Source of the DNA: a bacterium
GTDB lineage: Bacteria; Bdellovibrionota; FAC87; UBA2466
Length of the DNA stretch: 64,000 nt
Assembly: GCA_009927045.1 (NCBI GenBank)
Contig: RFNT01000062.1
Span: 3,971 to 67,970 of the forward strand
Reading direction: 5' to 3'
This document shows, one piece after another, positions 4,655-43,933 of the stretch. The position numbers were made by a program, and so were the translations under genes. A model generated the notes under the pieces. The model had not been told where the DNA came from and did no database searches. It worked only from the letters and a program-made list of their open reading frames with translations. The first letter of the stretch is position 1. Each line of letters starts with the position of its first letter.

Positions 4655-4709
4655 AGGCCCCTATGACTCAATCAACCGCCCAAAAAATGATTCTGATTTT
4701 TCAGTAACT

Positions 4710-5142
4710 ATGACTGAGTTAGTGCTTCCTCAACACACCAATGCTTTGGGGCTATTTTTGGCGGAGTCGTGATGGGATGGATTGATATTGCTGGGCCATA
4801 GCCGCTATGCGATTTGCCCGGAGACCGGTAGTTACGGTCAGCATTGACTCACTCCATTTTATTGTTCCGATCAAAACAGGAAACACGGTGCTCACTCGGG
4901 CGCGAGTGACCTACTCCGGGAAAACATCCATTGAGGTAGAAGTCGTGGTCGAAGCTGAGAACAGCGTGACGGGAGTTACTAAGCGCGCCACTCATGCTTT
5001 CCTCACTTACGTGGCAGTGGATGATAATGGAGATCCGACTCCAGTTCCCCCGTTCAATCCCAAAAATGAAGAAGAAAAGAAACGCTATGCGGAAGCCGGA
5101 GCTCGGCGAAAAGCACGGTTAGCTCAAGCCCGTTCTGACTGA
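4710..5142 (+). pseudogene. Acyl-CoA thioester hydrolase (YciA-like hotdog fold) interrupted by two -1 frameshifts at G-runs
   Basis: 'MTELVLPQHTNALG' (frame 0, from 4710), 'IFGGVVMGWIDIAG' (frame 2) and 'AIAAMRFARRPVVTV...' (frame 1, listed ORF 4807..5142) together rebuild a YciA-like N-terminus. The breaks fall at GGGG/GGG runs around 4749-4751 and 4793-4797. Confidence 0.55.
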
Positions 5143-5206
5143 TTGCCCAGTCCTTGGATAAAACTGACAATTTCGGCGAGTGAATTTGCCGCAGTAAAGA
5201 CTTCTC

Positions 5207-5521
5207 TCACCCAAGTTTTTTGAGAGCTGAGACATCGGTTTGTGGAATGACCCCACCTCCCAGCACTTGAATATCATCTGCTTTTCGGTCCTTCAGGAGC
5301 TGCAGGATCTCAGGAAATACTCGCTGATGGGCTCCCGATAAAATACTCACGCAAATGACCTTCACATCTTCTTGAATAGCAGAATTCACAATCATCTGAG
5401 GAGTTTGATGAAGGCCCGTATAAATGACTTCCATCCCAGCGTCTCGAAGCGCATGGGCCAGCACTTTAGCACCGCGATCATGACCATCGAGTCCTGGTTT
5501 GGCTACTAAAACACGAATCAT
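5207..5521 (-). CDS. Cobalamin (B12)-binding domain protein, methylmalonyl-CoA-mutase C-terminal-domain type, stand-alone
   Basis: '[20 protein letters not shown]' is the canonical MCM B12-binding start. The upstream ORF's stop overlaps this ATG as TGATG, so I chose the internal Met (5521) over the listed 5566 start. Confidence 0.75.
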
Positions 5522-6138
5522 CAGTGCTCCGTTTGCCCCTGCTTCCACTTTTTTGGAAAAATACAAACGACTTGCTTCTTGATTTCTACAAAGTCTCGAA
5601 TGTGCTGATGGATAGCTTTGACATTTTCTTCAGTAGCCGGAGCAGCTGCCAGTTCCAAAAACTTTACAGCAAACTTGTAATTCTCGGCCATGACTTTTCG
5701 AGTGAAACTCCGCCATGGCAACGTAGGATATTTGGTGATTCGTTGATCCGTAGTTGCTGTCAGCCATTCCTTTGCCCACTTTAACTCTATCTTAGCTTCA
5801 TTTTTTAAAATTTCCTGAAACTCTTGAGGAATCCAATCTCCACAAAGCTCTAAGAAATTATGCAACGTGAGTTGATCCCAGTCCCGGAGTACTCCAAAGA
5901 CATAAAGGATTTCATCGTCCTCCAAAGGGTGTTCTTCTTTTCGGAGAGCCAATAAGGCAGACACATTAGCAGACCTCAAAGTGCAGATCGCTGTTTGAAT
6001 CTGGTCCCAATGGGCCAGCGACCCTTGAATGCCCACCAAGGGTGCTTGGGTTTCTTCCAACTTGGAAATCTCCTGCCCTAACTCCCCTTCGCTCATGACT
6101 GCATCTACATTTAACTCAGGTAACCCTTCAATAAACAT
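5521..6138 (-). CDS. Hypothetical helical protein, translationally coupled to the B12-binding domain gene
   Basis: Strong SD 'AAGAGGGGG' 4-5 nt upstream of the Met at 6138 (MFIEGLPEL...). Its stop overlaps the B12-domain start codon. No family recognised. Confidence 0.5.
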
Positions 6139-7054
6139 AGACCCCCCTCTTGGTTTTTCTACCGTTCCAACCGGCCTCCACATACTTCCGCAGTAAAGGA
6201 GCTGGTCGGTATTTTGAATCGCCCAAATCTCGATGGAGCACTTCCATCACAAATAAACAGACATCCAGTCCTACAAAATCAGCTAACTCAAGAGGACCCA
6301 TGGGAAAATTACACCCCAGTTTCATGGCTGTATCGATGTCCTTAGGTGAAGCTAGGTTTTCCTGCAATGCAAAAAATGCTTCGTTGATCATGGGCATTAA
6401 AATACGATTCACTGCAAATCCAGGAGCATCTTTGGCTTCGATGAACACTTTTCCCATCTTTTCAGCCACACTCCGTACTATCTGAAAACACTCATCACTG
6501 GTCGCAAGACCCCGAATGCCCTCTACAAGCGTCATGATGGGGACAGGATTCATAAAGTGCATCCCTGCAACCCATTCCGGGCGCCGGGTATGACTAGCAA
6601 CTTCAGTAATAGAAATAGAGGAAGTATTGGTTGCTAAAATCACCCCCGGGTCTAAGAGTTGATCGAGATCCGAGAAGAGCTTGAATTTGACTTCCCGATT
6701 TTCAGTAGCGGCTTCAATAATAAACTGGCACGGCTTTAAATCAGATAACTGGGAGGTGGTTTTTAAGCGACGTAAAATCCCTTCAGGAGACTCCTGCAGC
6801 TTTCCCTTCTCCGCCAGCTTGGACAAACTTTTTGAAATCGCCTGAACAGCTTTTTCTAACTGAAGGGAAGAGATATCGAAAAGAACGACGTCGTAGCCCG
6901 AAGCCGCAGCCACTTGAGCAATCCCATTGCCCATAGTTCCTGAGCCAATAACGCCTAAACGTTGGATGGGCCGAGCTTTGATGTCTGACACGATGTAGCA
7001 ACCTCCGACGGCTTGATCAGAGGGTAAAGTACCAATGGGAGAGAAGGTCGTCAA
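6128..7054 (-). CDS. hbd: 3-hydroxybutyryl-CoA / 3-hydroxyacyl-CoA dehydrogenase
   Basis: '[16 protein letters not shown]' Rossmann motif and a C-terminal 3HCDH domain; 308 aa, typical for Hbd. Confidence 0.85.
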
Positions 7055-7133
7055 ACGGAGGCCTTAAAAGAATTCGGCCCAGAAAAGCCGATGCTTTTCC
7101 GGGCCAAAAATTCTTAAGATTCAACGGTTGTTA

Positions 7134-8600
7134 CTATCTACGAATGAAATGATTGGGAGCGCCTGGAACAGCTCCAATCGCCGTGTTCGAATTTCGAGGA
7201 GCCCCTCGGAACGTAGAAGCGTTGTTATTTCCTGCTGCATTCGCTCCAGGAGTATTTTGTACTCGCTGGCGTAAGCTATCTCGAATGCGACTTGCAGTAT
7301 CACAGCCTTCCATTAATGGCTGGAGTGAAGGTCCAAGTTGAGCTTGCATATTTCTAACGGAGTCCATCACAGCAACTGCTTCCACCAACATCTTCGCTGG
7401 GTTTTTTGTGCTGCGTACTGCTTGCAAGCGATTCGGGAGATCCGTGTTGAAGAACCCACCAATCGTACCTTGTAGATTTGCAGAAACATCTGGGCATGAA
7501 GTGTTGTAATCTCCGCGGAAAAAGCCCATGCTGTTAGCACGTCGCTCTTGCGCTTGAGCATCTAGAGCAGCCACTCGGCTTCCTACGATAGGCACTAAAT
7601 AGTTTCTTGCTGTATCAATTTCTTGGAAAATCCCGTCTGTCTCTTGTGTACAGTTCTGCAATAACTGAGCAGTAGATTGCTGGGCAACCATCATCATGAA
7701 TTGTTGTTGCTGTTCAATACCGCGAGCAAACTCATCACCTAATTGTTGTACTCGGCTGTCGTTATCACGGATTTGAAACAACTGCTCTGTAAATGCTTGG
7801 AACTTACCAACCAAATCCGACTCAATTTGCTTGAATTGTGACTTGGCTTCCGGATTTTTTTGCTTTTTCAACTTGCTCAAGCGAGATTCAATGGCTTGAA
7901 GACTGTCTAATTTCTCCAGTTCTTCGGGCTTGGTCGCTTCAGCATCCAGTTCTTCGTTCTTGGCATTGAGTTCTTTCAAGTTAGAAATGAGGTCCAAAAT
8001 CTTTTTGCGTTCAAGAGTCTTGGCTTCTTCAGACTTCTCTTCTAATAAAGTTTGGGCTTTTCTTCGTAAATAATCGACTTTGTCTGTACCAAATGTTTGC
8101 GCCATTTGAAGTAGCGGGGAAAAATCCACACCATTCTGACAAGAGTTTGCTAAGGAACTCACATCAAAATCTGCAGGGTTGATCATAGCTGGGCTTGAGT
8201 TGAGTTGACTTGCCAATTGTTGAGCTTTGTCTAACTTCAAGCTGCGTTCTGAAACGGCTTTTTTAATAAAACCATCCATAGCGGGGCCAATGGCATGCGC
8301 CTTTTTGATTTTTTTATGCCAGTTCTGCAGCTTTTGCTCTTCCTCAAACAATTCTTTTTTTGCTCCGCTCAATTCCAATGCCTGAGCGACTTTAGCCACT
8401 TGACTAGAAACTTCAGAAGTTAAACCGGCCTCTGTAGTAGTCGGGTTAGCACCTTTCAAAGCAGCGCTCACCCGAGGCAAATCTTTATTAAAACTTGCGC
8501 TATACTCATCGTAGCTTTCAGCTGATCCAATCACTGGAAAAGCACTCACCACACCTAAGGCTACGACAAAAAATGATTTACGAACCGCTAGCTTTTTCAT
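7134..8600 (-). CDS. Hypothetical secreted coiled-coil protein
   Basis: Signal peptide 'MKKLAVRKSFFVVALGVVSAFPVIGSA' with GGAG 7 nt upstream of this Met. A long Glu/Lys/Gln-rich helical region follows. No homolog recognised. Confidence 0.5.
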   Translation of the reverse strand: MKKLAVRKSFFVVALGVVSAFPVIGSAESYDEYSASFNKDLPRVSAALKGANPTTTEAGLTSEVSSQVAKVAQALELSGAKKELFEEEQKLQNWHKKIKKAHAIGPAMDGFIKKAVSERSLKLDKAQQLASQLNSSPAMINPADFDVSSLANSCQNGVDFSPLLQMAQTFGTDKVDYLRRKAQTLLEEKSEEAKTLERKKILDLISNLKELNAKNEELDAEATKPEELEKLDSLQAIESRLSKLKKQKNPEAKSQFKQIESDLVGKFQAFTEQLFQIRDNDSRVQQLGDEFARGIEQQQQFMMMVAQQSTAQLLQNCTQETDGIFQEIDTARNYLVPIVGSRVAALDAQAQERRANSMGFFRGDYNTSCPDVSANLQGTIGGFFNTDLPNRLQAVRSTKNPAKMLVEAVAVMDSVRNMQAQLGPSLQPLMEGCDTASRIRDSLRQRVQNTPGANAAGNNNASTFRGAPRNSNTAIGAVPGAPNHFIRR

Positions 8601-9189
8601 CAGACGACTCCGCGAAAACAACATTCCACTCTCAACTTATTCAAGAGCTCATACACTCTTCAGGCTTGGGGGGTTGACCCCAAGAGTACAGAGTACAGCT
8701 CTCAACCCAGAGAGCGGCTCAGAGGCCTGATGTGCAAGCAGTCTGCCAAAAACGCCCAAACCGCTTTCATGCTCAAACTCAGACGAGAATTTTCCCCTTC
8801 ATGACAAAAAGGGCTCACCAAAAACTTGTTTTAGCGAGTAGTTTCAAGCATTTAAAATTCGACTAACTTTTTGATAGCCCGTAGACCTATTAGACACCTC
8901 AGAAAAATGGGCTTGTAGGCTTTTTAAGAGACAATCTGGGGTACGCACCTGATCACAGTTCATACAGGTGCTGAAAGCTTCTTCAAGGTCACTAACCTTC
9001 AAAACTTTGGGTTTTTTTAGTTCCCCTGTTAGGAGAATGGCAGAACCCAGTGACGGCGCCGACGAGAACCCTATTTCTTAGGATTATGAAAAAGAGCTAA
9101 CTCCTCAAAACAACGAATGAACTCTCTCGGTGTCAGAGTTGGCCGGCTTCTTGCTGTATTCTAAGAGTAGACGTTACATAAAACACAGC

Positions 9190-9245
9190 TTGAATTAGCA
9201 GCTTTGAAAACAACTTGATTCAGCAACTTGAAAACAGCTTGAGAT
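9190..9245 (+). promoter_or_regulatory. Tandem direct repeats TTGAAAACA(A/G)CTTGA upstream of the small secreted-peptide gene
   Basis: 'gctTTGAAAACAACTTGAttcagcaaCTTGAAAACAGCTTGAg' gives two near-identical 15-mers about 22 bp apart, with a third partial copy 'cagcttgaatt' upstream. Confidence 0.35.
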
Positions 9246-9275
9246 GACACCATGAAATTCATCGGAGAACACAAC

Positions 9276-9529
9276 ATGAACTACACCTCAGTACTCATTG
9301 CCTAGCTCTCTCTTTAGCTTCTGTGGGCAGCGCCCAAGTGGTGCTGCCTGCCAGCTCAGATTACAACGACCCTTATACTTATTATCGAGATTGTGTAGAT
9401 AGAAACGGCGAAGAGAACCGATCACTGTGTGAAAACCACACGGGCACGCTTTTTCCTGAAGAAGATAAAGCTCCTGTAGATGCAGAAGACGACTACGCCT
9501 CGGCAGAAACAGTCAACTCTTCCTACTAA
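9276..9529 (+). CDS. Small secreted acidic peptide (about 85 aa), apparently split by a 1-nt frameshift in the signal peptide
   Basis: 'MNYTSVLIA' (ATG 9276, frame 0) plus 'LALSLASVGSAQVVLPASSDYNDPYTYYRDCVDRNGEE...' (listed ORF 9323..9529, frame 2) join into a textbook signal peptide. The break is at a CC run near 9299-9301. Confidence 0.35.
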
Positions 9530-9541
9530 AGGTGGAAAAGA

Positions 9542-11230
9542 CTATGTTCCAGTTCGTGGAGCAATGTATTGGTTTCCGGGTTTTCCTGCCTTCAGATACT
9601 TGATATAAGACACCGCTACAAAAACCACCTGAAGAATTAAGTAAGTAATCACGTAACTCAATCCTCCGGAACCAAAGCCATAGGAATGCAGCCCCACTCC
9701 CAAAACAAAATTAACTCCATACCAGGCCATCACGACTCCCAGGAAAGATAAAACGGTAGCCGCTACAAATCCAAATCCCTTCAGCCATCCAGTAAACCGC
9801 CCATGCAGCACGGCTATATAGAACAGAAGGGCTATCAAAGCCCACACTTCCTTGGGATCCCATCCCCAAAATCTTCCCCAAGAATAGTCGGCCCAAATGC
9901 CTCCTAAGATAGTGCCTGCAGCGAGCAAGATCACCCCAATTTGCATCGCTCGGTACATGAACATGATGTTTTGTTGAATCGCTTCGGTTTGGTGCGGCTT
10001 AAAAATATAGAGTCCCAAATTGAGATTCCCCAAGCAAGTTGCGACGGCAAAGCCGGCATAACTCAAAGTAATGCACAGCACATGAATAGTGAGCCAAAAA
10101 TTACTCCTCAGCACTGGAACTAAAGGATGAATGCCCGGATCGAGAACCGAAGGCAGGTAATCCGCCAGAACCAACCCGGCGATGCTAAACACTAAGCTTG
10201 CAGTCGGAATAATGATGTTTCGATACCCCGTCCAGATCAGCAAAGAAAACAGGATACTCCCCCACGTTACCCAAACCACCGATTCATACATATTTGTCAC
10301 AGGAGGACGACCAGCGATCCAGCAGCGCAAAATAAATCCATAGGTATGCATGAGAAAGCCCGCAAATAAAAATGCGGTACCCACTTTTCTCATCAGCTCA
10401 TTTTTCCCTACGATGCTCACCACTAATGCAATTAACGCTGTTAAATAAATGACCCATGCCCAGCGGAATGGACGTGCGCGGTTATAGTGGATCTCAACAT
10501 TCAACTGTGAAGCCGCAGGATATTGCCCTTGGCCCAACTCTTTTCGCAATAACCCTTCAACTTCCAAGGCTCCAGAATTCCATTCAACCGCCTTTTTGTT
10601 TAAGAAAGCATCAACCATTTTACGGAGTGCAAAAGCAAACTGATCTCGGGCATCGGAGTTATAGGGTAAACTACCGCCATCCGTCAGCGCCGATAGGGGA
10701 AACCAGGCCGCTTCTGAACCTTGGGGGTTCGGCAAAATAACCAGTGCGCTTCCTCCGATGATAGCCTCCAATAGATTTTTCTTATTATCTAACTCGATAG
10801 CTTTTTTTTCGAGATCCGTGAGACGCTCTTTTCGATTTTGTTTCTGAACTGCATCACTCACCATTTTATCAAGGCCTTCGACACTTCTAATTTCAATAGG
10901 CCGAAAGTACTGTCGTTTAATATCTAAATGAAGTGCTTCTTTCAGGGGTTTATAATCCACTCGAACAAACTCTTCGCTATCCCAATCTTTATCAAAAGCA
11001 ACCAACCACCCAAAAGTGACTTCACTAGCTGTTAAGCCTTTCCACGAACTTTTGCCAGTGATGTATAGAACGCTCTCTCGAGCAAACGTATCATACGGTT
11101 TCACACGTCCTCGATCTTGAATGGCCCAAGACTCAACGGATTCCCACGAGAAACCATCTCGCTTTTCAACGCTGGAAAAAGTCACACACGAAAAAATGAG
11201 TCCCAACCAAATCAAAAACGACTTTTTCAT
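9542..11230 (-). CDS. ccsA: Cytochrome c biogenesis protein CcsA/ResC (system II heme lyase subunit)
   Basis: Contains the 'WGRFWGWDPKE' WWD motif, multiple TM helices and a large N-terminal periplasmic domain. Confidence 0.85.
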   Translation of the reverse strand: MKKSFLIWLGLIFSCVTFSSVEKRDGFSWESVESWAIQDRGRVKPYDTFARESVLYITGKSSWKGLTASEVTFGWLVAFDKDWDSEEFVRVDYKPLKEALHLDIKRQYFRPIEIRSVEGLDKMVSDAVQKQNRKERLTDLEKKAIELDNKKNLLEAIIGGSALVILPNPQGSEAAWFPLSALTDGGSLPYNSDARDQFAFALRKMVDAFLNKKAVEWNSGALEVEGLLRKELGQGQYPAASQLNVEIHYNRARPFRWAWVIYLTALIALVVSIVGKNELMRKVGTAFLFAGFLMHTYGFILRCWIAGRPPVTNMYESVVWVTWGSILFSLLIWTGYRNIIIPTASLVFSIAGLVLADYLPSVLDPGIHPLVPVLRSNFWLTIHVLCITLSYAGFAVATCLGNLNLGLYIFKPHQTEAIQQNIMFMYRAMQIGVILLAAGTILGGIWADYSWGRFWGWDPKEVWALIALLFYIAVLHGRFTGWLKGFGFVAATVLSFLGVVMAWYGVNFVLGVGLHSYGFGSGGLSYVITYLILQVVFVAVSYIKYLKAGKPGNQYIAPRTGT

Positions 11231-13041
11231 TGTGTCTCCTTATGGTTTCCCACCAAGATTTTCAAATAGTGCGGATTCATATAAAACATGATCGCAATTC
11301 CCAAAGTCATCAGAAGAGAACCTAAATATTTGAGCACTCTACCGGGATCGTGATTAACTGCGAAGACAGAGACTGCGGGCTGCCCGGGAGACAATTGATA
11401 ACTTGCTTGATAAAAATAGTAGCCTCCATATTTCAAGGGCTCATTCATACTAATAGTCGCTTTTTTATCCGATTGAGCCTTCGGATCTTTTACCGTGACG
11501 TCGCTGATAAAGCTGGCAGCAGTATTAGTCCCAGGATTCGTCCCCATCGTAAACTTATCTAGATAGAGCTGAAAAGGAAGGGTCATCCGGTCACGATGGT
11601 ACTGAACAATCAGATCCCCTGACGAAGCAGCAACACTTTTTCCCATTCCTTCCAAAAGCCAAAAGGCAGGCGTGTTTCCCACGCGCATTCGGACAGCCGT
11701 GAGAAAGGGCTCATCAGCTCCCTGTAAAACTTCGACTGAACGCGGCTCTTCATCCAGCACGGAACTGGGAATCCAGTCTTTGAGGGACAACTCAATGTCC
11801 ATCCAGCCAGTAGCAACTTTCTCTCCGGCTTTGAGTTGCCCTTCTCCATTCACAGCTCCCGCACTTGATAACACGCGATACAATATTTTCGACCGATCCG
11901 CTGATTGCGCTAGGAATAAATGCCCACGCGCCCTGCCCACCCCGCGCAATGACTCTTCTTTTTCAGGACCTCGATAGGATAATGTCACACCCAGAGGATT
12001 TTTCTTGTTTTTAGCCCCTTGGTGGAGCGTATTGAACTCAGGGAACAAAGCAAAGACGGTGTGCTTCTCGGGTGGTGTTGCCTGCCCCATCTCTCTCACT
12101 TCCACTTCTACGGCCGGATTCACCGGTTCCTGGCTTTTGGAAATGAGTTTTTTCCCGTCAACAACAGCGTAAGGCAAATAGCGTTTGACTTGGATTTCTA
12201 ATTTTACTTCTTCCAGTGGTCTCCACTTACCCAATAATTCAGAAACCTGGAGGGCAAAACGCTTCCCTTGAACTTCGATGAGCAAACGCCCCTGATCTTT
12301 TCCTTTTGGCTGAGGAGCCTTAGGCTTTCGCTGAAAAAAAGCCTGCTCATCAGCGCTCGTTTTCAACGCTTCAAATGTCACGATTGCAGGACCTAAATTC
12401 AGTTCTGCTCGCTCGGTTTTTGCTTCTGGCCTTAACCATTGTTCAATTTGGAACCGACTGTTGGTGAGCCCCACTTTAACAGCGGGCAACCCAATCCCTG
12501 GAGTGGGACTGGGAACCATTTTGGTCTCTGGGATCGCGCGAGGGATAAACTTTTCGATTTGGATCTGTTCTCCCCCTGCCAAATCTACTTGCATTAATTT
12601 TCCTACTTTACTCCGGTGGAACTCAGGAACAGAAAACATTTGGGTGGTACCCGTTCGCTGATCGGTTACCGTCAACTTTAAGTCATTCAGGATCACTTCT
12701 TGGCTTTGCTGCTTTTCGGGAATAGGCATATTGCCATCCAATCCGAACTGCTGAGTCACAAAAGCCCCGGCCAAAATCACAATGATTCCTAAATGGGTGA
12801 TCACAAACCCAGTTTGTCGCATTTTCCAGGGGTATCGAGACATGGCTGCGCAGAACACATTGAGCCCCAACAAGAAGAGAACCCCTCCAAACCACCAACG
12901 TTGGTACACCACGATTTGAGAACCACGCATGCCGTAATAGCTACCGACAAAAGTAGCAAAGGCCAAAACGGCAGATAACAGCAACAATGAAAACACTGCC
13001 AACTTTAAGGATGAAAAAAATTTAAAGAGTCCTTTAATCAT
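11227..13041 (-). CDS. ccsB: Cytochrome c biogenesis protein CcsB/ResB
   Basis: ResB-type N-terminus 'MIKGLFKFFSSLKLAVFSLLLLSAVLAF' and a large periplasmic domain. It lies immediately upstream of ccsA with a 4-nt overlap. The listed start (13113) overlaps the upstream gene by 80 nt, so I used the internal Met. Confidence 0.8.
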   Translation of the reverse strand: MIKGLFKFFSSLKLAVFSLLLLSAVLAFATFVGSYYGMRGSQIVVYQRWWFGGVLFLLGLNVFCAAMSRYPWKMRQTGFVITHLGIIVILAGAFVTQQFGLDGNMPIPEKQQSQEVILNDLKLTVTDQRTGTTQMFSVPEFHRSKVGKLMQVDLAGGEQIQIEKFIPRAIPETKMVPSPTPGIGLPAVKVGLTNSRFQIEQWLRPEAKTERAELNLGPAIVTFEALKTSADEQAFFQRKPKAPQPKGKDQGRLLIEVQGKRFALQVSELLGKWRPLEEVKLEIQVKRYLPYAVVDGKKLISKSQEPVNPAVEVEVREMGQATPPEKHTVFALFPEFNTLHQGAKNKKNPLGVTLSYRGPEKEESLRGVGRARGHLFLAQSADRSKILYRVLSSAGAVNGEGQLKAGEKVATGWMDIELSLKDWIPSSVLDEEPRSVEVLQGADEPFLTAVRMRVGNTPAFWLLEGMGKSVAASSGDLIVQYHRDRMTLPFQLYLDKFTMGTNPGTNTAASFISDVTVKDPKAQSDKKATISMNEPLKYGGYYFYQASYQLSPGQPAVSVFAVNHDPGRVLKYLGSLLMTLGIAIMFYMNPHYLKILVGNHKETQ

Positions 13042-13978
13042 GAGACAAAACCTCTGATGAGGAATTGTACCACCGAATACGAATGAAGGGACTGATTTGA
13101 ACCGCTTCATCATTCTCCCAAAAGCTTTTTTTGATGTAGGCCAGTCCCACCCCTCGAGAAGGTTTTTGGGGGTGAACTAAAATCGATTTAAGCTGACCCA
13201 TTTTTTCAGTCCCTTGTGAAATTTCCAAATCGGGAGCTTGGGAAACATCAGTACTGGTGAGCTCAGCTGAAACTCGCAACAGCTTCTTATTCACTTGGCC
13301 ATATGTAAAAATACGCTCAACCACTTCCTGTCCCGGGTAGCACCCCTTGTTTCGGGCCACTGCTTTTTCCAAGCCGGCTTCGAGTACTAATTCGGACTCA
13401 CTGAGCTCCCATCCCAGCCAAGGAACCCCCGCTTGCACTCGAAAAAAATGGAACAGCTGCATCCCTAAACGGGCCAACCCCCGAGCTTCCCAGTTCTGAA
13501 ATTTTTCCATTTGCTGATGACGATCAAAAAAATGCCAGTAAAGACTGGGTCTCCATGCATCCACCCAAACGTTTTGAAGATCCAGAGGTTTTTTATTCCA
13601 AAAACCCACTAAAGCATAATTCTCAGTGCAATCCTTGATGACAAGACGCTCTTGAAAATGAAACTTCTCAAAGTGCTCCAAAGAAAGCTGTCGCTGATTG
13701 GGGGCGGTCATCCACAAGTAACGTTCCGAATGGACTCGGAGCAAATTTCCGATAACTACGACTGTCCCGCGCCCAGTTAAAAAAGCACCTGGAGCGAGCT
13801 GCCCATCTTCCATTGTTTTTAAATTCACTGTGGAAAGTCGTTGCAAAAAGTCTTTGGAATCGGGGCCTTCAATTCCAATCACTCCCCAATCGCTCAGATC
13901 AAAATAACCACCGGATTGGGCCAACTCATAATCGCGCTGATAATCATTCGTCATCAACGAGTCTTGCATAACGGACAC
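13034..13978 (-). CDS. Folate-binding protein, YgfZ/GcvT aminomethyltransferase-like
   Basis: Conserved 'KGCYPGQE' motif of the YgfZ family; 314 aa. Confidence 0.65.
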   Translation of the reverse strand: MSVMQDSLMTNDYQRDYELAQSGGYFDLSDWGVIGIEGPDSKDFLQRLSTVNLKTMEDGQLAPGAFLTGRGTVVVIGNLLRVHSERYLWMTAPNQRQLSLEHFEKFHFQERLVIKDCTENYALVGFWNKKPLDLQNVWVDAWRPSLYWHFFDRHQQMEKFQNWEARGLARLGMQLFHFFRVQAGVPWLGWELSESELVLEAGLEKAVARNKGCYPGQEVVERIFTYGQVNKKLLRVSAELTSTDVSQAPDLEISQGTEKMGQLKSILVHPQKPSRGVGLAYIKKSFWENDEAVQISPFIRIRWYNSSSEVLSHD

Positions 13979-14277
13979 TCACAAAGCGCTCTCAAATGTT
14001 CAAATGTATAAAAACCGGAATCATGACCATCGCTCCACTCTACCTTCAAAGCATAGCGCCCCACCGACTCGATACGTTTCGGCTGTATGTCTGCGGGTAC
14101 CATCTCGTCTTTCAGCAACTCTTCTCGGGTCCATTCATCCACACACACTGCACACCGGCATTTCAAGCGAAGAGTGCGCACATTGAACAAACTTTGATGC
14201 CCGTCATTCCAAACAATCCCTAAATGCTTAGGTCCGACTTGCTTCAACTCTAAGGGCGCTAAACTCATCACTGCCAT
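13954..14277 (-). CDS. DUF971 family protein (gamma-butyrobetaine hydroxylase-like N-terminal domain)
   Basis: 'CRCAVCVDEWT' and 'CECPLC' Cys motifs; a small protein, commonly found next to Mrp/ApbC. Confidence 0.7.
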   Translation of the reverse strand: MAVMSLAPLELKQVGPKHLGIVWNDGHQSLFNVRTLRLKCRCAVCVDEWTREELLKDEMVPADIQPKRIESVGRYALKVEWSDGHDSGFYTFEHLRALCECPLCKTR

Positions 14278-15374
14278 TCCATCGACAAGGTTTTAAACTG
14301 TCCTTCTGTTTTCAATGTCAGAACTGAAAGATGAGCAGCCAACTTCCGAGCGATTTGCTGGTACCTTACCGAAACGCTGGACTGCGGTTGAGCTACGACA
14401 ATTGGGGTTCCGGAATCTGAAGTGTCTGCAATTTCCGGATCCAAAGGAATAGCCCCCAACAACTCGACTCCACCTTCCTGAGCCAATTTCTCACCCCCAC
14501 CTTTTTTGAAAACAGAGGTGACTTCCTGGCAATGACCACATACAAACCCGGACATATTTTCTACAATCCCAAGAATAGGAACTTTCACATTTTGGAACAT
14601 TTTGAGACCTTTACGCGCATCGATCAGACTGACCTCTTGAGGCGTTGTCACTATCACAGCACCGGACAGAGGGGCGCTTTGGCTGATCGTGAGCTGGCAT
14701 CCCAGTTCCAGGCGGCATATCAATCAAGAGATAATCAAGTTCCCCCACTCTACCTGACTCAAAAACTGAGTCAGTGCTCCATGCACCATCGGACCTCGCC
14801 AAACCACAGGTTCTCCGGGAGGAATTAAATACCCCATCGACATCATCTTCACGCCAAACTTCTCAATGGGAATGACCCGTTTTTCTCGGCTCTCAGGCTT
14901 AGCATCCAGTGTTCCCATCATGAGAGGAATGCTAGGACCATAAATATCCGCATCCAAAAGCCCAACCCGAGCACCCTCAGCTGCGAGCGCCATACAGAGA
15001 TTAATCGTTACAGTGCTTTTTCCCACTCCGCCTTTTCCACTAGCGACTGCAATCACATTGCGGACCGAAGGGAGCGCTATACGATTCGCTTGTTGAGCAC
15101 TGCTTCGCACATGAGCTGTCATAGTGACTTCGACCTGTTTTACTTCAGGTAAAGATTTAACGGCGGCTTCACACTGAGCTTTCAATTGCTCTTTCACGGG
15201 ACAAGCCGGTGTGGTCAACTCGACATCAAAGCGCACGTGATCGCCCTCAATTTTCAGATTCTTTACAAAACCTAAGCTCACAATATCTCGATGGAGATCC
15301 GGGTCCTGAACAGTTCGCAATTTTTCCAGTACTTTTTCGGGGGTTAAATCTGTGTTTTTTGATCTGAATAGCAT
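14268..15374 (-). pseudogene. mrp: Fe-S cluster carrier ATPase Mrp/ApbC, reading frame broken by frameshifts at about 14700-14770 (possibly sequencing error)
   Basis: Three listed ORFs in three frames give ..GKGGVGKST..QVEWG | ELDYLLIDMPPGTG | ..QLTISQSAPLSGAVIVTTPQEVSLIDARKG..CGHC. This order matches Mrp. The breaks sit at a G5 run and at GGG/CC runs. Confidence 0.7.
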
Positions 15375-15420
15375 GTCCCGTTTCTAGCACTTCAAAGGAG
15401 CAAAGGAAAGAGATTCAGCT

Positions 15421-16504
15421 TTATTTCAATGGCTTAGCGGAGGGAGGGAGGACTTGGGCAGTGGGTAGCGCTTTAGAGAGAAAAAAACCAAGACTTCCCC
15501 CCAGCAAAAACACCAATGCGAATGCCGCCCACAAGGGCAGCCGACCGTTTCGAGAGGGACGAATCTGGTCTTGATAAGAAACCGTCGGAGCCACTAGAGA
15601 TTCATCATCCAAAAATTTCAAAATGAGGTCGGGAGCATGGTTCGTTTTGTGAGCCCCCAAATAATGCTCCAACCAGGTCACTATTTCATCAATAGTTTCA
15701 AATCGATTTTCTGGCTTTTCTCCAACATTTCTCAATCATTTGGTCAATGCTTCGCGGAATGGCACTATTCATGGCTCGAGCAGAAATAAAGTCACAATCC
15801 CGAATGCGCTGAAACACGGTTTTACTGCCCTCTTCTTTGAAGGGACGAGTACCCGTCAGCATTTCATACAAACAAATGCCCACTAAAAATATATCGGATT
15901 GATAGGTTAAAGGATCTCCCAGCACTTGCTCAGGGGATAAATAGCAGGGAGAGCCCACCATCATTCCTGGACGAGTCAGGGTATGGTTTTCGGTATCCAT
16001 CACGATGCCAAAGTCCATGAGTTTGACTTCCCCTCGAGAAGTCAGACGAATGTTAGACGGCTTAATATCTCGATGGATTAAATGATGCTTGTGAATATAG
16101 GCAAGCCCGCGGCAGACCCCCAACAAAATAGCCAATGCGATTTCAGTGGGAATAGCCCCCACCCGCTGGATGACCTGCGAAAGATCTACTCCTTCAATAT
16201 ATTCCATGAAAATAAAAGCTTCTTTTTCTGACTCGAAAAAATCATAGACATGTGCCACGTTTTGATGGAGCACACCCGCCAAAGCTTTGGCCTCTCTTCT
16301 AAAACGCTCACGAGTTTCAGAGTTTTCCAATAGATGCGGTTTTAAACTTTTGACAGCAACAAAACGATTCAGTTTGGGTTGCTTTGCTTTAAAGACAATT
16401 GCCATTCCTCCCGTTGCCAGCGGCTGAATATCCTCTAGCCCTCCGGGCACGAGTCCTCTGCTCTGCAAGGACAGGGGAATTGCGATGTTCTTTTTATCTT
16501 CCAT
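15421..16504 (-). pseudogene. Ser/Thr protein kinase with C-terminal TM tail, frame broken at about 15700-15735
   Basis: Catalytic domain (ATGGMAIVFKAK, HRDIKPSNI, DFG, SPEQ) in ORF 15698..16504. Subdomain XI 'EKPENRFETIDEI' plus a TM helix continue in ORF 15421..15735 in another frame. The junction 'aaatgttggagaaaagcc' lies at T/A runs. Confidence 0.7.
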
Positions 16505-25815: not shown

Positions 25816-27423
25816 ATGGAAAAATCAATGAGCACTTCAGAATTACCCACAGTCCATTGGGCAGATCATGCTGCTGACGCTTTAGTTGCCAAGCATCCTC
25901 AAAAAACGACTTTTGTGTGCGCCTCAGGAATCTCCCCCAGTGGTGTAGTTCATATTGGTAATTTTCGTGAGGTGATTACAGTTGATTTTGTGGTCCGAGC
26001 TCTCAAAAGCAAAGGTAAGGATGTGCGCTTTATTTATAGTTGGGATGACTACGATGCCTTAAGAAAAGTACCAGCGAATTTACCGAATCAAGAGCTCATT
26101 GAGAAAAATTTGAGACGCCCTCTTTCGAACATTCCGGACCCTTTTGGAACCGAAGCTTCTTATGCCCAACATTTCGAGAGAAAATTTGAAAAGGAAATTC
26201 AACAGCTAGGGATCACCCCTCATTTTATTTATCAAAATGAGCAATATCGCGCATGCAAATACCATCAGGGCATTCAAACTGCTTTACGAAACGAAAAGGC
26301 CATTGCTCAGATCTTGAATCGGTCTCGAACCGAACCTTTACCGCAGAACTGGTCTTGTTTGAGCATCTTTTGCAAAACGTGTGGTAAAGACACTACAGAA
26401 GTACTGAGTTTCCAGGAACCTTCCACGGTCCAATACGCCTGCAAGTCATGCAAACGCCAGGACCAAATCGATTTCACACGAGAAGCAGGAGTGAAACTTC
26501 TGTGGAGAGTAGATTGGCCAATGCGTTGGGCGCATGAAGGTGTCGATTTTGAACCGGGTGGCAAAGACCACTCATCGCAAGGTGGCTCATATGATACCGG
26601 GTGTGAAATCGTCCGTGAAATTTGGAAAAGAGAACCGCCTTTTTATGTTCAGTATGATTTTGTCTTAGCAAAAGGAGTGGGATCCAAACTTTCTTCCTCT
26701 TCTGGAAATTTAATTACGTTGGGACAAGCGCTCGAAATTTACGAACCCGCAATTATTCGGTACTTATTCGCAAGCAGAAAACCAAATTTAGATTTTTCTA
26801 TCGCGTTTGATCTCGACGTGATGAAAGCCTATGACGATTTCGATCGCTGCGAACGAATTGCATTCGGAGCGGAGAAGGTCGATGAGAAAAAGTTGAATTA
26901 TGAGAAGCGAATTTATGACTTCTCACGAATCGAAACTGCCGCATTAACTCAAGACATGCCCACACAATTCCCATTCCGGCATCTCTGTAATTTATTGCAA
27001 ATCCAGGAAGGCGACTTGGAAAAAACCAAGCTATTCTATCAAGCGCAGATTAAGACACCCCAAGATGAGCAGCGCTATTATTCACGCGCGCACAGAGCTT
27101 GGAAATGGATCAGTGAATATGCTCCGACTGAATTTAGATTCACTCTACAAACCAATCCTCAAGTAAAAACGGCTTTTCCCCAAGTGATGACTGGTTTAAT
27201 TGCTCTTCTGAAAGAAATGCCACCCCAAGTGAGCGAAGAAGAATTGGCCAATCGAACATGGGAAATCATGAAAGCGCACCAAATCGAAGGAAAAGTTTTC
27301 TTTAAAGATATTTATCAAATCCTGGTTTCAAAACCGAATGGACCTAAACTGGCTTCTTTTTTGTTGGCCATAGGGACCAAACGAGCAGCCGAGATACTCC
27401 AAAAAGCCCTGCCTGAATCCTAA
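25816..27423 (+). CDS. lysK: Lysyl-tRNA synthetase, class I
   Basis: 'SPSGVVHIGNFREV' HIGH-type motif, a 'KLSSSSG' KMSKS-like motif and Cys clusters typical of class-I LysRS; 535 aa. Confidence 0.8.
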   Translation: MEKSMSTSELPTVHWADHAADALVAKHPQKTTFVCASGISPSGVVHIGNFREVITVDFVVRALKSKGKDVRFIYSWDDYDALRKVPANLPNQELIEKNLRRPLSNIPDPFGTEASYAQHFERKFEKEIQQLGITPHFIYQNEQYRACKYHQGIQTALRNEKAIAQILNRSRTEPLPQNWSCLSIFCKTCGKDTTEVLSFQEPSTVQYACKSCKRQDQIDFTREAGVKLLWRVDWPMRWAHEGVDFEPGGKDHSSQGGSYDTGCEIVREIWKREPPFYVQYDFVLAKGVGSKLSSSSGNLITLGQALEIYEPAIIRYLFASRKPNLDFSIAFDLDVMKAYDDFDRCERIAFGAEKVDEKKLNYEKRIYDFSRIETAALTQDMPTQFPFRHLCNLLQIQEGDLEKTKLFYQAQIKTPQDEQRYYSRAHRAWKWISEYAPTEFRFTLQTNPQVKTAFPQVMTGLIALLKEMPPQVSEEELANRTWEIMKAHQIEGKVFFKDIYQILVSKPNGPKLASFLLAIGTKRAAEILQKALPES

Positions 27424-27784: not shown

Positions 27785-28831
27785 ATGCAAAATTTAGAAA
27801 CTGGCTTTGCATCCACAACTCAAGGCCCTACGGATACCCAAAAGATTCAAATAGAGGAGGATGCGGCAGCGCTTAAAGCGGTCATGACTGAAGTCAGCAA
27901 AGTGATTGTGGGGCAAGAGGCTATGATCCGCTCATTGCTTCTAGGCTTGCTGACTGATGGCCACGTCTTACTTGAAGGACTCCCAGGTTTAGCAAAAACT
28001 TTAGCTGTAAAAAGTTTAGCCTCTGTACTGCAGGCCAAATTTCAGCGGATCCAATTTACCCCAGATCTACTGCCCAGTGATTTAGTGGGTACGATGATCT
28101 ACCAGCAAGAGACGCACCAGTTTATTCCTAGAAAAGGTCCCATTTTTGCCCATCTCGTTTTGGCAGATGAGATCAATAGAGCTCCTGCCAAAGTTCAAAG
28201 TGCATTGCTCGAGGCGATGGCAGAGCGACAAGTCACTATCGGAGAGACCACCTTCCCGTTGCAATCTCCATTTTTAGTTCTTGCGACGCAAAATCCCATC
28301 GAACAAGAGGGAACTTATCCCCTTCCCGAAGCCCAACTGGATCGTTTCCTGTTTAAGGTAAAAGTGGGGTATCCCAATCGACAAGAAGAAAAACTGATCA
28401 TTGAACGCATGGGCTCTGCCCAAACTCCGTCCACCCGGCAAATTCTCTCTACGGGACAAGTGCTGCAAATGAAGGAACACCTCAAATGGATATACACAGA
28501 TGCCCGAATTGAGGATTATATTCTTAGATTAGTTCTGAGTACTCGCAGAGAAATTCCACTTGAAGCTCACGAAGCCGATCTTTCGCAACTTAAAGATATT
28601 CGTGCCTCTATACGCATTGGAGCTTCTCCGCGAGCTTCTTTATTTCTTTACCGTGCAAGCCGAGCCCATGCCTTTTTGAACAACCGGCTCTTTGTGACAC
28701 CAGATGATGTCAAATCGGTTGCTTTTGAAGTTCTCAGACACCGTCTCATTCTCACTTTTGATGCAGAGGCTAGAGGCTTGAATACTGATCAAATCATTTC
28801 TCAGCTTCTTAATACGGTTACGATTCCCTAG
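27785..28831 (+). CDS. moxR: MoxR-family AAA+ ATPase
   Basis: Walker A 'GLPGLAKT', 'VLADEINRAPAKVQSALLEAMAERQVTI'. It is the first gene of a bat-type operon. Confidence 0.85.
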   Translation: MQNLETGFASTTQGPTDTQKIQIEEDAAALKAVMTEVSKVIVGQEAMIRSLLLGLLTDGHVLLEGLPGLAKTLAVKSLASVLQAKFQRIQFTPDLLPSDLVGTMIYQQETHQFIPRKGPIFAHLVLADEINRAPAKVQSALLEAMAERQVTIGETTFPLQSPFLVLATQNPIEQEGTYPLPEAQLDRFLFKVKVGYPNRQEEKLIIERMGSAQTPSTRQILSTGQVLQMKEHLKWIYTDARIEDYILRLVLSTRREIPLEAHEADLSQLKDIRASIRIGASPRASLFLYRASRAHAFLNNRLFVTPDDVKSVAFEVLRHRLILTFDAEARGLNTDQIISQLLNTVTIP

Positions 28832-28836
28832 AGCAC

Positions 28837-29715
28837 ATGAATACTCAGTTTCATTTCCGGTCCGAACTCATCCACGCTATTGATCTGCTTGAGCTCAAAC
28901 CAAAACAGCGGCTGGCATCTCCTTTTGTAGGAGAACACGAGAGTCACTCGCGTGGCGCAGGGATGCACTTCAAGGAATTCCGTCCCTATGAATTTGGGGA
29001 TGATATTCGCCACATCAGCTGGACCACCACTGCTCGCACTGGGAAACCCACATTAAAAGTTTACGATGAAGAACGAGAAATCCATGTCTTTATTATAGTG
29101 GACATCAGCGGTTCTTCTCTGTTTGGTTCTGGGAATCGACGTAAAATAGATATGTATGCCGAGGTCGTGGCACTCGTCGCAATGAGTGCCCTCAAGTATA
29201 ACTATCGATTTGGATCCGTCTTTGCTGATTCTGAGGTTCAGTCTTTTTCTCCTCCGACCAGAAAAAAGGAAGAAATTTTATCCGGAATCAATCAGCTTCA
29301 GACGCTTAACCTGCAAAAAAGACAAAGTGATCTTCGACCTGCACTTCAGCTGTGTAATCGATTACTCAAACACAAGACACTTCTGATCATCCTCTCGGAC
29401 TTCATTGTTCCTGCTTTTCAAGCTGAATTGCATGCTCTGAGCACCCGACATGAAATTATTTTAATGCAGGGATATGACGACTCTGAAAGATTCTTGTCTA
29501 GCAAAGGTATTTCAGAAATTTGCGATCCGGAGACAGGTCAGTTTTTTGTTATGGATTCAGAATCCCCCTTTTGCAGAAAAGCAGTTCAATCTTATTATGC
29601 AACTTTTTTACTAAACCTCGAAAAAGTCGCACAGCAATGCCGTGCCGACTTTCTTCCATTGAGCGTACAAGATGACTACCTTCAAAGAGTGGTTCATTTT
29701 TTTAATGAACGCTAA
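28837..29715 (+). CDS. DUF58 family protein (vWA-like partner of MoxR)
   Basis: 'FKEFRPYEFGDDIRHISWTTTARTGKPTLKVYDEERE' DUF58 signature. Confidence 0.8.
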   Translation: MNTQFHFRSELIHAIDLLELKPKQRLASPFVGEHESHSRGAGMHFKEFRPYEFGDDIRHISWTTTARTGKPTLKVYDEEREIHVFIIVDISGSSLFGSGNRRKIDMYAEVVALVAMSALKYNYRFGSVFADSEVQSFSPPTRKKEEILSGINQLQTLNLQKRQSDLRPALQLCNRLLKHKTLLIILSDFIVPAFQAELHALSTRHEIILMQGYDDSERFLSSKGISEICDPETGQFFVMDSESPFCRKAVQSYYATFLLNLEKVAQQCRADFLPLSVQDDYLQRVVHFFNER

Positions 29716-30550
29716 TTTGTTCTGGTCGTTAAGCGCCTGGAGCTTTAGCTTTGAACTCACGAAACCCAAGATCCAAGTTGGAGAATCTACTTTCCTAAAA
29801 ATCCACCTTCCTTTAAACGGAAACTCCCAACGCCCTATTATTTTCGATGATTTGCTCACGCAAAATAAGAATCTTAAACTTCTGGAGCACCAGATTGTAA
29901 AAACTGATTCAGAATATGAAATCAGTTTTGAACTCACTGCTCACAGTTCCAAAAAAGTTTCAATCCCTCCTATTCAAATCCAGTTAGGCCCCGATACATT
30001 TTCAACCGAAACACTTGCCTTAGAGGTTTGGTCCTCTCGAGATCCTAATGACACGGAAATTCGTGCGGAGTTTGAACCCCTTCAGCTTCCTATTCCATGG
30101 AAGAAACTTTTTAGTTACTTTATATGGTCAATCAGCGGACTTTGCTTTTTCTGGATTCTTCGAAGAACTTTTTCTCGCATTCCGTGGAAACGGCTATCAC
30201 TCCAACTTCATGCTGTCAAAATGCCTAATTTGGAAAGCAACCGAATGTGGCTCAAAAGACAACTCAAACGCATCCGTTCAGAAAGGCAAAATCGAGCGAA
30301 CCCCCTCGTGCTCGCAGATGACTTGAGCTTTGTGCTTAAAACATTTCTTGAACGTCAAACCCACACTCCAGCACTTTCTTGGACCGCCCAGGAAATCGTA
30401 GCGCAATTGCCTCAACTAACTGCACGCCCAGGTAGAAGAACCGTATTGGCTCATATCGATTCCGTGAGATATCAGCCCAAACAAGGAATGACTTACGAGG
30501 CTGTCATCGATGAACTGATTGATCAGGTAGAAAAGGAATTCTTGAAATGA
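29705..30550 (+). CDS. Hypothetical membrane protein in the bat operon (signal peptide, extracytoplasmic domain, one TM helix, basic tail)
   Basis: Located between DUF58 and batA. 'LFSYFIWSISGLCFFWIL' is a TM helix. I preferred the internal start 'MNANLFWSLSAWSF'. Confidence 0.4.
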   Translation: MNANLFWSLSAWSFSFELTKPKIQVGESTFLKIHLPLNGNSQRPIIFDDLLTQNKNLKLLEHQIVKTDSEYEISFELTAHSSKKVSIPPIQIQLGPDTFSTETLALEVWSSRDPNDTEIRAEFEPLQLPIPWKKLFSYFIWSISGLCFFWILRRTFSRIPWKRLSLQLHAVKMPNLESNRMWLKRQLKRIRSERQNRANPLVLADDLSFVLKTFLERQTHTPALSWTAQEIVAQLPQLTARPGRRTVLAHIDSVRYQPKQGMTYEAVIDELIDQVEKEFLK

Positions 30551-31593
30551 CTCAGTGGCTGTTTCACATGGCTTTTTGGGGATTTTTGCCCCTTCTAGGA
30601 ACTAGCCTCTACTTCGTATTCAAAAGAAAGAGTGAACAGGATTCTCTTTTGGTGCGCATGCCGGGTCCTTGGAGTGAACTCAAGCAACTGATGCGTCGGA
30701 CTCGCTGGGCATTTAGACTTTTGTTCCTTTTACAAATTCTCGCTCTTTCGCTCATGGTGATTGCTCTAGCGCGTCCGATTCGGACCAAAACGCTCATCAA
30801 CAAATCTACTGAGGGCGTTGATATCGCGATTGTTCTCGATGTATCTGAAAGCATGGATGCTGAAGACCTCACTCCCAGCCGGATCCTTGCGGCAAAACAA
30901 GTGATTCGTCAGTTCATAAATCAAAGGCCCAATGATCGTATCGGTTTGGTTGTTTTCGGAGGGGAATCTGTCATGAAGTCGCCTCTCACCCGAGATTTTC
31001 CATTTTTGCTCCAACAAGTAGATAATATTAAGCTGAGAGAACTCAAACAGGGTACAGCTATTGGTTTAGGAATCACAAATGGACTTTCCCGTCTTCGCAA
31101 AAGCCAATCAAAAAACAAACTCATCATTCTTTTGACGGATGGAGACAGCAATGTCGGTTCCGTTAATCCGATGACTGCAGCTAAACTAGCTGCTCAAGAG
31201 GGAATAAAAATTTACACAATTGGAATTGGACAGGAAGATAGAGTGGTAGTTCCTATCTATTCTTATGACTCTCAAGGACAAAAGATGCATTTGATTGCTC
31301 AAGTACCTTCCTACCTGAATCCTCAGCTACTAAAAGAGATTTCGCAACTCACGGGTGGAAAGAGCTACATGGCTCGCGATTCGGGCATGTTGTCCAGAGT
31401 GCTTCAAGAAATCGACAAACTGGAAAAAACCAAAGTGAAGATATCGGCCACGCCCGAGACAGAGGAGTTGTTTTTATATCCAGCTATTCTGGCAACAGTA
31501 CTTATGGCGATTCTCTTTTTATTATCTGAAACTCGATTTCAAAGACGGCTCAAGGAACCATTACGACATGAACTATCAGCTCGCGCAACCTGA
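30547..31593 (+). CDS. batA: BatA-type vWA domain membrane protein
   Basis: N-terminal TM helices followed by the vWA MIDAS motif 'VLDVSESMDAEDLTPSRILAAKQVI'. Confidence 0.8.
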   Translation: MTQWLFHMAFWGFLPLLGTSLYFVFKRKSEQDSLLVRMPGPWSELKQLMRRTRWAFRLLFLLQILALSLMVIALARPIRTKTLINKSTEGVDIAIVLDVSESMDAEDLTPSRILAAKQVIRQFINQRPNDRIGLVVFGGESVMKSPLTRDFPFLLQQVDNIKLRELKQGTAIGLGITNGLSRLRKSQSKNKLIILLTDGDSNVGSVNPMTAAKLAAQEGIKIYTIGIGQEDRVVVPIYSYDSQGQKMHLIAQVPSYLNPQLLKEISQLTGGKSYMARDSGMLSRVLQEIDKLEKTKVKISATPETEELFLYPAILATVLMAILFLLSETRFQRRLKEPLRHELSARAT

Positions 31594-42235: not shown

Positions 42236-42960
42236 TTGTCTTCTTGATCTTCGGCGCGTTTGCTTCTTTAGCCTTTGGTAAACCCGCTTGGATTCTCACC
42301 CCAGATCAAATCTATCCTCTTTTAGAATCTCATTTATCAAAAAAAAAGGAAGACTACTTTAAACGGACAGTGAGACGGGCCGGCAATCAAACCATTGAGC
42401 TGGAAGGCTTCAGCTCGCTCAGCGGCCGATTGGAAAATTTTTACTCAGTTGCGAAAGACATCCCTAACTACCGCCAGTGGGCTTTGACGGGACTGAATAA
42501 AAAGCCTGCGGGGGGCGAATATTTACTACAGATTTTGGATTTGAGAGTAGATCCCCAGAAATCTAACGTCCTACATGCATTGTTTGGATTACGATTTCCG
42601 GGTATCCACCAAGACTTGCGTCGATCGTTCCTCATTATTCCTACTCAGCAACCACGCTCTGTTACGGTCTCTTGTCAAAGTTTGGATGCCCCAGATTTGG
42701 TCTTGAGCTCTTTAGTGGGCTACATCACTGCATTCTCAGCGCCGAAGGACCCTGAACGACTCTGGGTTTATTTCAAAGGAGTAGCAAAAATCAGGTCTTG
42801 GATCCTCTATCAAGCGCTCCCCGAGCGATTGCTCACTCAGGAATCCTCGGAACGTATTCAGACCGTGCTGGACAACTTTTCCCAAGAAGAAGTGAAGCAA
42901 TACGCTTTGGTGGAGCGATCAAATAGAGTCAAACCCCCAAAGAAAAAGCGGCAGCGGTGA
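42157..42960 (+). CDS. Hypothetical secreted protein (start uncertain; overlaps the ubiB 3' end)
   Basis: Hydrophobic N-terminus 'LIVFLIFGAFASLAFG' and a basic C-terminal tail 'KPPKKKRQR'. Confidence 0.35.
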   Translation: MGSLLFWCILAGIRNQCLETFKIQSLIVFLIFGAFASLAFGKPAWILTPDQIYPLLESHLSKKKEDYFKRTVRRAGNQTIELEGFSSLSGRLENFYSVAKDIPNYRQWALTGLNKKPAGGEYLLQILDLRVDPQKSNVLHALFGLRFPGIHQDLRRSFLIIPTQQPRSVTVSCQSLDAPDLVLSSLVGYITAFSAPKDPERLWVYFKGVAKIRSWILYQALPERLLTQESSERIQTVLDNFSQEEVKQYALVERSNRVKPPKKKRQR

Positions 42961-43933
42961 TTGAGATTTCCAACCATCTTTTCCAAGCACTTGGATTAAG
43001 CATTCTTCGTCGGTTAGCTTTTGCCATTCTTTTTGTTCAGTGAGCTTATTTTTTGATTTGAGATGCTGTTCGTAAGCTGCCAAAAGTAAATTCTTATCTA
43101 GGAGTTTAATCAAGCCTAGGCTTCCCAACCAATGGTGATCCGCAAGAGGACCAAACCAATCTTCTCCAGTATCAAAAGGGGCTATGAGCGTTAAGGGGTG
43201 CTCACGGTAAGGTCCGGTCTGACAAGCGATCACATTGTTTTGGACCGCTTCTTTATCTCCAGCCCATTCGTGAATGTAGTGTGTGAAATCTTTCCCCTTG
43301 TTGATGGCCACATAAGAAGTCAGGGCGTTTCCGGATTGGGTCACGTACACCTCAGTCTGCGGGATATTCAGCAACTGTTTCATCTCTGCCAACGACCGAA
43401 CCATCTTGTAACTTTTGTTGAGAATACAAGTTCCAAAGCGCTTCGAGATCTTTGTTCCGATCGTATAAACGATTCGCTTGATTTCCTGCTCCCACGTGTT
43501 GTTGGGAAAACCGAAAATCTTTCTCGAGTCCGCACCGATAAAAACCCAGAGATTCATAAAACTCAGGTTGATCTGACCACAAAATACTGAGAGCACAAGC
43601 TTCCTGATTAAAAAAATGAAGCGCTTCTTGGATGAGTTGAGTAGCTAATCCCTTTTTTCTAAAACTACTGTGAGTCGTGACCGTTCCAATCAGTCCCAAA
43701 GAGAGTTCCCAATCAGGTCCCTGATATTTTTTTATGAGAGTCCCCACATGGGCAACGATTCGGCCTTCAAAAGTAAAATAAAACGACCGTCCGCCGGGGT
43801 AAGGTCTAAAAACCGTTGGGTATTCCTCTTCTATCTTAAAATTGACGGAGGCTTGCAGTTCTTGGTTCAAAAAATCAAGGACACGCTGGTGATCTCGGGA
43901 TGGGTTTTGGGAGTGATCGAGAGTTCCTATCAC
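42919..43933 (-). pseudogene. GNAT-family N-acetyltransferase with a C-terminal extension; two ORFs overlap by 245 nt in different frames (probable frameshift)
   Basis: The N-terminal ORF (43352..43933) has the acetyl-CoA motif 'GTVTTHSSFRKKGLATQLI'. The second ORF (42919..43596) continues in another frame. The likely junction is near the A-run 'caacaaaagttacaagatgg'. Confidence 0.45.

Follow-up and report, generated by a model that had tools for sequence, protein, structure and literature searches.

The ApbC/Mrp family, examples of which are E. coli Mrp, Salmonella ApbC, and the eukaryotic Nbp35/Cfd1/Ind1, is recognized by a deviant Walker A motif (GKGGVGKS/T in Mrp) and by a CXXC pair that ligates a bridging cluster. 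When a gene of this kind is found interrupted by small indels, two types of precedent can be consulted. Genuine frameshift pseudogenes, in which a conserved housekeeping gene is hit by small indels, are known from decaying genomes such as those of host-restricted bacteria. Indel artefacts from consensus calling, on the other hand, classically occur at homopolymers in 454, Ion Torrent, and nanopore data, and the frameshift artefacts of draft genomes and metagenome-assembled genomes (MAGs) are single-base events, mostly deletions, that are enriched at runs and affect several genes while sister assemblies remain intact. Here, we examine a broken mrp/apbC gene in a 64,000-nt stretch of DNA (hereafter, the window). 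Comparison of the window with related sequences leads us to regard the mrp frameshifts as almost certainly artefactual rather than biological, whatever their exact cause.

The gene lies in pieces on the minus strand at 14268..15374, where three overlapping or abutting ORFs occur. The N-terminal ORF (14724..15374, minus strand, 216 aa) carries DUF59 and the P-loop and matches PF10609 positions 2-112 (E=1e-46), the middle ORF (14611..14802, minus strand, 63 aa) contains ELDYLLIDMPPGTG and matches positions 107-124 (E=8e-5), and the C-terminal ORF (14268..14723, minus strand, 151 aa; LTISQSAPL...CGHC) matches positions 127-245 (E=1e-40). Because the three ORFs cover abutting parts of one PF10609 domain, they make up a single split Mrp/ApbC gene, as a first-pass annotation of this DNA had proposed. 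The same annotation placed the three segments each in a different frame, which proved incorrect: the P-loop and CGHC halves share one frame, and the gene measures 1107 nt as assembled (a multiple of 3) and 1110 nt when repaired. The shift is confined to a middle part of about 44 nt, and the third frame serves 4 nt only, between the second and third missing bases. As the net change is -3 nt, the main frame is regained after 15 codons, and its defect consists of 15 wrong residues and one TGA, with nothing else. This TGA (14724-14726, minus strand) stems from the shifted middle segment and terminates the N-terminal ORF, leaving an as-written product of 216 aa that contains neither DYLLIDMPPGTGD nor CGHC.

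Insertion of one G into the G5 run at 14742-14746 and of a G and a C into ACTGGGATGCCAGCTC (14691-14706) produces a continuous ORF of 369 aa. The repaired protein is matched by Pfam models PF10609 (E=1.4e-106) and PF01883 (E=2.6e-25), and it scores 369.5 bits against the ApbC equivalog NCBIfam NF008669 (cut-off 348), with residues 5-350 of 369 aligned and a total length equal to that of the model. Besides the N-terminal DUF59/FeS_assembly_P domain, the product has Walker A GKGGVGKS at aa 113-120, already inside the N-terminal ORF as assembled, and the C-terminal CXXC pair CGHC at aa 280-283. The DxLLIDxPPGTGD segment of the Walker B/switch region, DYLLIDMPPGTGD, is out of frame in ORF 14611..14802 as assembled and takes its place at aa 214-226 only once the three bases are restored. 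The repaired gene thereby has the full architecture of its family (NF008669; PF10609 plus PF01883), from DUF59 to CGHC, although the ORF is interrupted as assembled and residue 127 (14994-14996, minus strand) is Cys (TINLCMALAA), unlike the Ser of the closest relatives compared (P0001, P0002, P0004, and P0006). Judged by these matches, this is a typical ApbC/Mrp gene, and its product is a predicted Fe-S carrier ATPase.

Intact versions of the gene are readily found. The best database match to the repaired Mrp, P0001, is 99% identical, uninterrupted, and also 369 aa long, and the contig that encodes it (L001; 98.4-99.6% DNA identity to the window) carries exactly three extra bases in mrp, namely the G, G, and C whose restoration had been suggested in the first-pass annotation. 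Further near-identical contigs (L082-L111) were found via exact matches to neighbouring proteins; when looked up in the same way, neither the truncated 216-aa fragment nor ORF 7134..8624 had an exact match. In a scan of genome contigs with the repaired protein, the matches listed had at most 55% identity. In all contigs that span the junction (L001, L083, L104/L109, L105/L110, L108, and L106/L107), mrp is uninterrupted. These six are independent assemblies with 89-99% nucleotide identity to the window, three of them from Lake Lanier samples, and all have the continuous frame that the window lacks. The mrp lesions were seen in none of the contigs from the 2010, 2011, and 2015 Lake Lanier samples or from other runs. 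The Lake Lanier samples SAMN10254613, SAMN10254618, and SAMN10254649 date from 2010, 2011, and 2015, respectively, and were sequenced on Illumina (Table S1, bioRxiv 10.1101/826941).

These relatives allow an assessment of whether mrp might be expressed as written, by programmed ribosomal frameshifting or stop-codon recoding. Such a reading would draw on the net change of -3 nt, the return of the main frame after 15 codons, and the presence of one TGA only. However, none of the relatives, whose identities range from 89% to 99%, has the shift sites, and read-through in the main frame would put NLIIS*LICRLELGC in place of the conserved ELDYLLIDMPPGTGDA, a motif shared by the eight closest relatives compared (proteins P0001, P0002, P0004, and P0006; DNA of L001, L104-L107, and L083) with a single difference, an E-to-D change at the first residue in P0006. 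Lesions of the same type in four unrelated genes, described below, count against it as well. Because no relative shows the shifts, we regard programmed frameshifting as excluded for practical purposes and give it a negligible probability. Decoding of the TGA as an amino acid was also considered and rejected, as the shifted segment would destroy the conserved motif anyway.

A true and very recent pseudogenisation, in which this strain would have lost three mrp bases together with single bases in four other genes, is a further reading. In its given form, the sequence has frameshifts and would encode the 216-aa product, and a search of the 64-kb window for a second mrp copy found none; both points are in keeping with gene loss. 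However, the pN/pS of the repaired mrp against five relatives is 0.03-0.05, far from relaxed selection, with about 90% of the substitutions synonymous (27 synonymous and 3 non-synonymous differences from L001), and mrp holds no stops or indels beyond the three missing bases. A low pN/pS without any further lesion is the pattern of a working gene, and the substitutions indicate that mrp is under strong purifying selection.

The position of the missing bases is informative in its own right. They lie between 14697 and 14743, within 46 nt, so that the indel zone first given as 14700-14770 is real, with a slightly narrower span. At each of them two haplotypes differ, A (L001 and L104) and B (L083 and L105). 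At the first (14742..14746, minus strand), the window has G5 where haplotype A has GGGGGG and B has GGGGTG; at the second (14701..14703, minus strand), it reads CTGGGAT where A has CTGGGGAT and B has CTGGAGAT; and at the third (14696..14697, minus strand), it reads GCCAG where A has GCCCAG and B has GCTCAG. The first missing base is the third position of a Gly codon, and the A/B difference there is therefore synonymous; the other two are likewise third positions, of a Gly and an Ala codon, and all three lost positions are synonymous. Restoring T, A, T or G, G, C gives an identical protein. Haplotypes A and B are about 2.4% apart within mrp and have six differing positions within 85 nt. Over 14676-14760, taking in order 14760, the first missing base, 14737, the second and third missing bases, and 14676, the bases are A, G, A, G, C, T in haplotype A, G, T, T, A, T, C in haplotype B, and G, -, T, -, -, C in the window. 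That is, the window equals haplotype B at each retained SNP and has a gap at the other three sites. The probability that all three mrp deletions fall on polymorphic sites is about 6e-5 when gap sliding within runs is allowed for. The three deletions, all within 46 nt, coincide exactly with SNPs of the population, which also speaks against pseudogenisation; no mutational process is known to remove polymorphic bases selectively.

The same columns bear on homopolymer under-calling by read chemistry, the cause favored in the first-pass annotation, under which the true sequence would resemble haplotype A (G6, G4, and C3) with each run called one short. Compared with L001, each of the three mrp sites could indeed be a shortened run. 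However, the window carries haplotype B alleles at 14760, 14737, and 14676, and an A origin would need a mosaic that is absent from the six contigs. If the lost bases were those of haplotype B (GGGG[T]G, GG[A]GAT, and GC[T]CAG), then the T, A, and T would each lie outside runs, with none inside a homopolymer, and even in the A reading two of the mrp 'runs' are merely 3-4 bases long.

The comparison was extended to the 63,394 of 64,000 nt that are covered by near-identical contigs, over which the window shows 16 single-base indels, comprising 15 missing bases and one extra. All 15 missing bases fall within 4687-15725, and an extra C at 43412 is the only insertion. Runs of 4 or more contain or adjoin 9-11 of the 16 indels, as compared with a background of 15% (P<=2e-4). 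Homopolymer under-calling would account for this enrichment and for the dominance of deletions (15 of 16 events), and to this extent the earlier proposal stands. Nevertheless, only 4-7 of the 16 are inside such runs, while 5-7 neither lie in nor adjoin one (for example, GTCTGG reduced to GT-TGG and CTGGAGCC to CTGG-GCC), and the indels are thus not confined to runs. Moreover, no single-base indel occurs in about 48 kb of the window, a part that has many longer homopolymer runs; 29 kb of it shows 99.9% identity to a single contig of 2010. Illumina was the only platform used for the metagenomes in which this population occurs, and 454 and Ion Torrent are limited to outside comparison sets. Taken together, we consider homopolymer under-calling by read chemistry a rather doubtful explanation for the mrp lesions.

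Strain variation offers a better account of where the bases were lost. Five of the 15 deleted positions are polymorphic as compared with a background of 3.9% (P=2e-4), and with a third of the indels on strain-variable sites, the evidence points to a mixed-haplotype consensus rather than to read chemistry. A further deleted site, 15725, varies at greater distance: close relatives have C there, and L106, at 89% identity, has T. The events are also clustered, as for 16 random events in 64 kb the probability is 8e-4 for three within 46 nt and 0.02 for two within 5 nt. Three observations weigh against a mixed-haplotype model: at 10 of the 15 deleted positions the few haplotypes available at the <=4% divergence used in the test do not vary, the SNP-rich stretches at 46 kb and 53-55 kb contain no indels, and the enrichment at homopolymers is not predicted by a model of pure haplotype mixing. 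When the 16 sites were inspected by eye for a shared sequence motif, such as a methylation motif, none was apparent.

Two longer length differences were also noted. At 20904, L087 and L108 have 6 nt (GCACCG) that the window lacks, and this in-frame difference may reflect real variation in tandem-repeat length. A 24-nt difference between L001 and the window at 16281-16314 was set aside, being merely an N run in that scaffold. As for overall similarity, the window is a mosaic: over 15.3-44.5 kb its identity to a single Lake Lanier contig of 2010 is 99.9%, but SNPs amount to about 1% at 4-16 kb, 46 kb, and 53-55 kb. This pattern suggests that the window is a consensus or recombinant of several strains.

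In addition to mrp, four genes are broken by the same kind of event. A Ser/Thr protein kinase gene (15421..16504, minus strand) is split into 268 and 104 aa by missing bases at 15720 and 15725, and it is intact, at 361 aa, in L087, L104, and L108. The two deletions are only 5 nt apart and the surrounding sequence is otherwise identical to that of L087, a contig from the same lake, which is difficult to reconcile with pseudogenisation. A scan of metagenome contigs for the kinase junction with N at both sites found no match. A 4HBT thioesterase gene (4660..5142, plus strand) has missing bases at 4687, 4748, and 4795, within 108 nt and with a net change of -3 as in mrp, and is intact in L084, L085, and L108. 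In a gene for a B12-binding-domain protein (5130..5566, minus strand), the missing base 5211 shifts the last 28 or so codons; this site is polymorphic, with T in L084/L085 and C in L108. Finally, a GNAT acetyltransferase gene (42919..43933, minus strand) is split into 193 and 225 aa by the extra C at 43412 and is intact, at 337 aa, in L096.

Thus, five of approximately 60 genes in the window are broken, each by 1-nt events without other decay and each intact in near-identical contigs. As mrp is one of five genes broken alike, its state is very probably due to assembly error and not to gene decay. The first-pass annotation had likewise preferred an assembly error over a true pseudogene, and the intact gene in six contigs, the purifying selection, and the four other broken genes bear this preference out. 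In contrast to genuine frameshift pseudogenes, the window shows no relaxed selection and no other lesions, its events cluster within tens of bases, and contigs of up to 99.9% identity lack them; for mrp, no independent assembly compared reproduces them. We therefore hold true pseudogenisation to be very improbable.

The six remaining missing bases (8907, 8998, 9012, 9069, 9090, and 9302) fall in a SNP-rich, poorly coding stretch, with 9302 being A/C polymorphic. Scans of the whole 64 kb for tRNA genes and Rfam families found none, and these six deletions at 8.9-9.3 kb are therefore outside any known RNA gene. The 0.9 kb at 8624-9542 is without a long ORF and has many SNPs found in the window only; its counterpart in L082 holds only ORFs of 100 and 66 aa without Pfam matches. 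Elsewhere in the window, a row of genes for a MoxR AAA ATPase, DUF58, VWA, and VWA-TPR proteins (27785-33112) resembles a Bat-like aerotolerance operon and adjoins a class I lysyl-tRNA synthetase gene (25816-27423). A very large ORF on the plus strand, from about 60119 to 64000, runs past the end of the window; it is 1389 aa long in L099 and L102 and has a weak trypsin-domain match.

The mrp gene also recurs as a breakpoint in other assemblies of the same population. Contigs of three other assemblies start inside it, L082 and L111 at 14675 and L083 at 14900, and in the NCBI MAG GCA_009924675.1 mrp is present as two partial proteins (NBV49742.1 and NBV50459.1) on two contig ends. Such breaks inside the gene mean that the spot is hard to assemble, with strain variation disturbing assembly. 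The ENA contig L100 (2011 sample, scaffold_762) has broken genes of its own: TsaD, RsmA, and one gene of 444 aa are called as fragments. At position 55518 of the window, L100 is also missing a T that the window shares with five other contigs. Indel errors thus occur outside the window's assembly as well.

With regard to origin, proteins identical to those of the window exist at NCBI (NBX81740.1, NBX81749.1, and NBX81760.1) on a contig of 69,402 nt, from which the window probably derives, and these, together with near-identical contigs from its samples, tie the window to a study of Lake Lanier. For one MAG set of that study, each sample was assembled with IDBA-UD, the contigs were cut, and the fragments of all samples were re-assembled (bioRxiv 10.1101/826941). 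We infer that the window belongs to this cross-sample MAG set.

The features described above (intact independent assemblies, clustered and nearly one-way errors, polymorphic sites, and purifying selection) fit an artefact, and its specific mechanism is probably a consensus error in mixed-strain co-assembly at positions where haplotypes differ. The source would be a freshwater Lake Lanier bacterium, known only from metagenomes, in which mrp/apbC is presumably intact and functional in vivo. Two coexisting strains with haplotypes A and B may have been merged in the consensus, with bases dropped at three of the six differing positions. The same process could have produced all 15 missing bases and the extra one, mostly in the SNP-rich stretch at 4.7-15.7 kb, and thereby have broken the four other genes; bases in or adjoining short runs would in addition have been prone to loss. 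A candidate step for the loss is the cross-sample re-assembly of contig fragments, which would mix alleles of different years; alternatively, ambiguity codes or N at heterogeneous positions may have been removed later.

Compared with the known frameshift artefacts of draft genomes and MAGs, the window agrees in its single-base and mostly deleted events, their enrichment at runs, the number of genes hit, and the intact sister assemblies, but differs in its likely Illumina input and in its many events away from runs. The frameshifts belong to a well-known class of draft-assembly indel artefact, and nothing biologically new is indicated. What appears slightly unusual is the link of indels to polymorphic sites in an apparently Illumina-based co-assembly.

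For users of this MAG, the practical consequence is that at least five genes in 64 kb are falsely frameshifted and would be annotated as pseudogenes or lost from the proteome. From the overlap of errors with strain variation, false frameshifts seem to arise through cross-sample co-assembly or the treatment of ambiguous bases, even with Illumina data. If the three deletions were real, which we think most improbable, a free-living freshwater bacterium, perhaps a hypermutator sub-lineage, would have just lost its sole Mrp/ApbC along with a kinase, a thioesterase, and an acetyltransferase, and ApbC would be dispensable in this lineage. As it stands, the biological weight of the finding is small: what the population carries is an intact, ordinary ApbC/Mrp gene.
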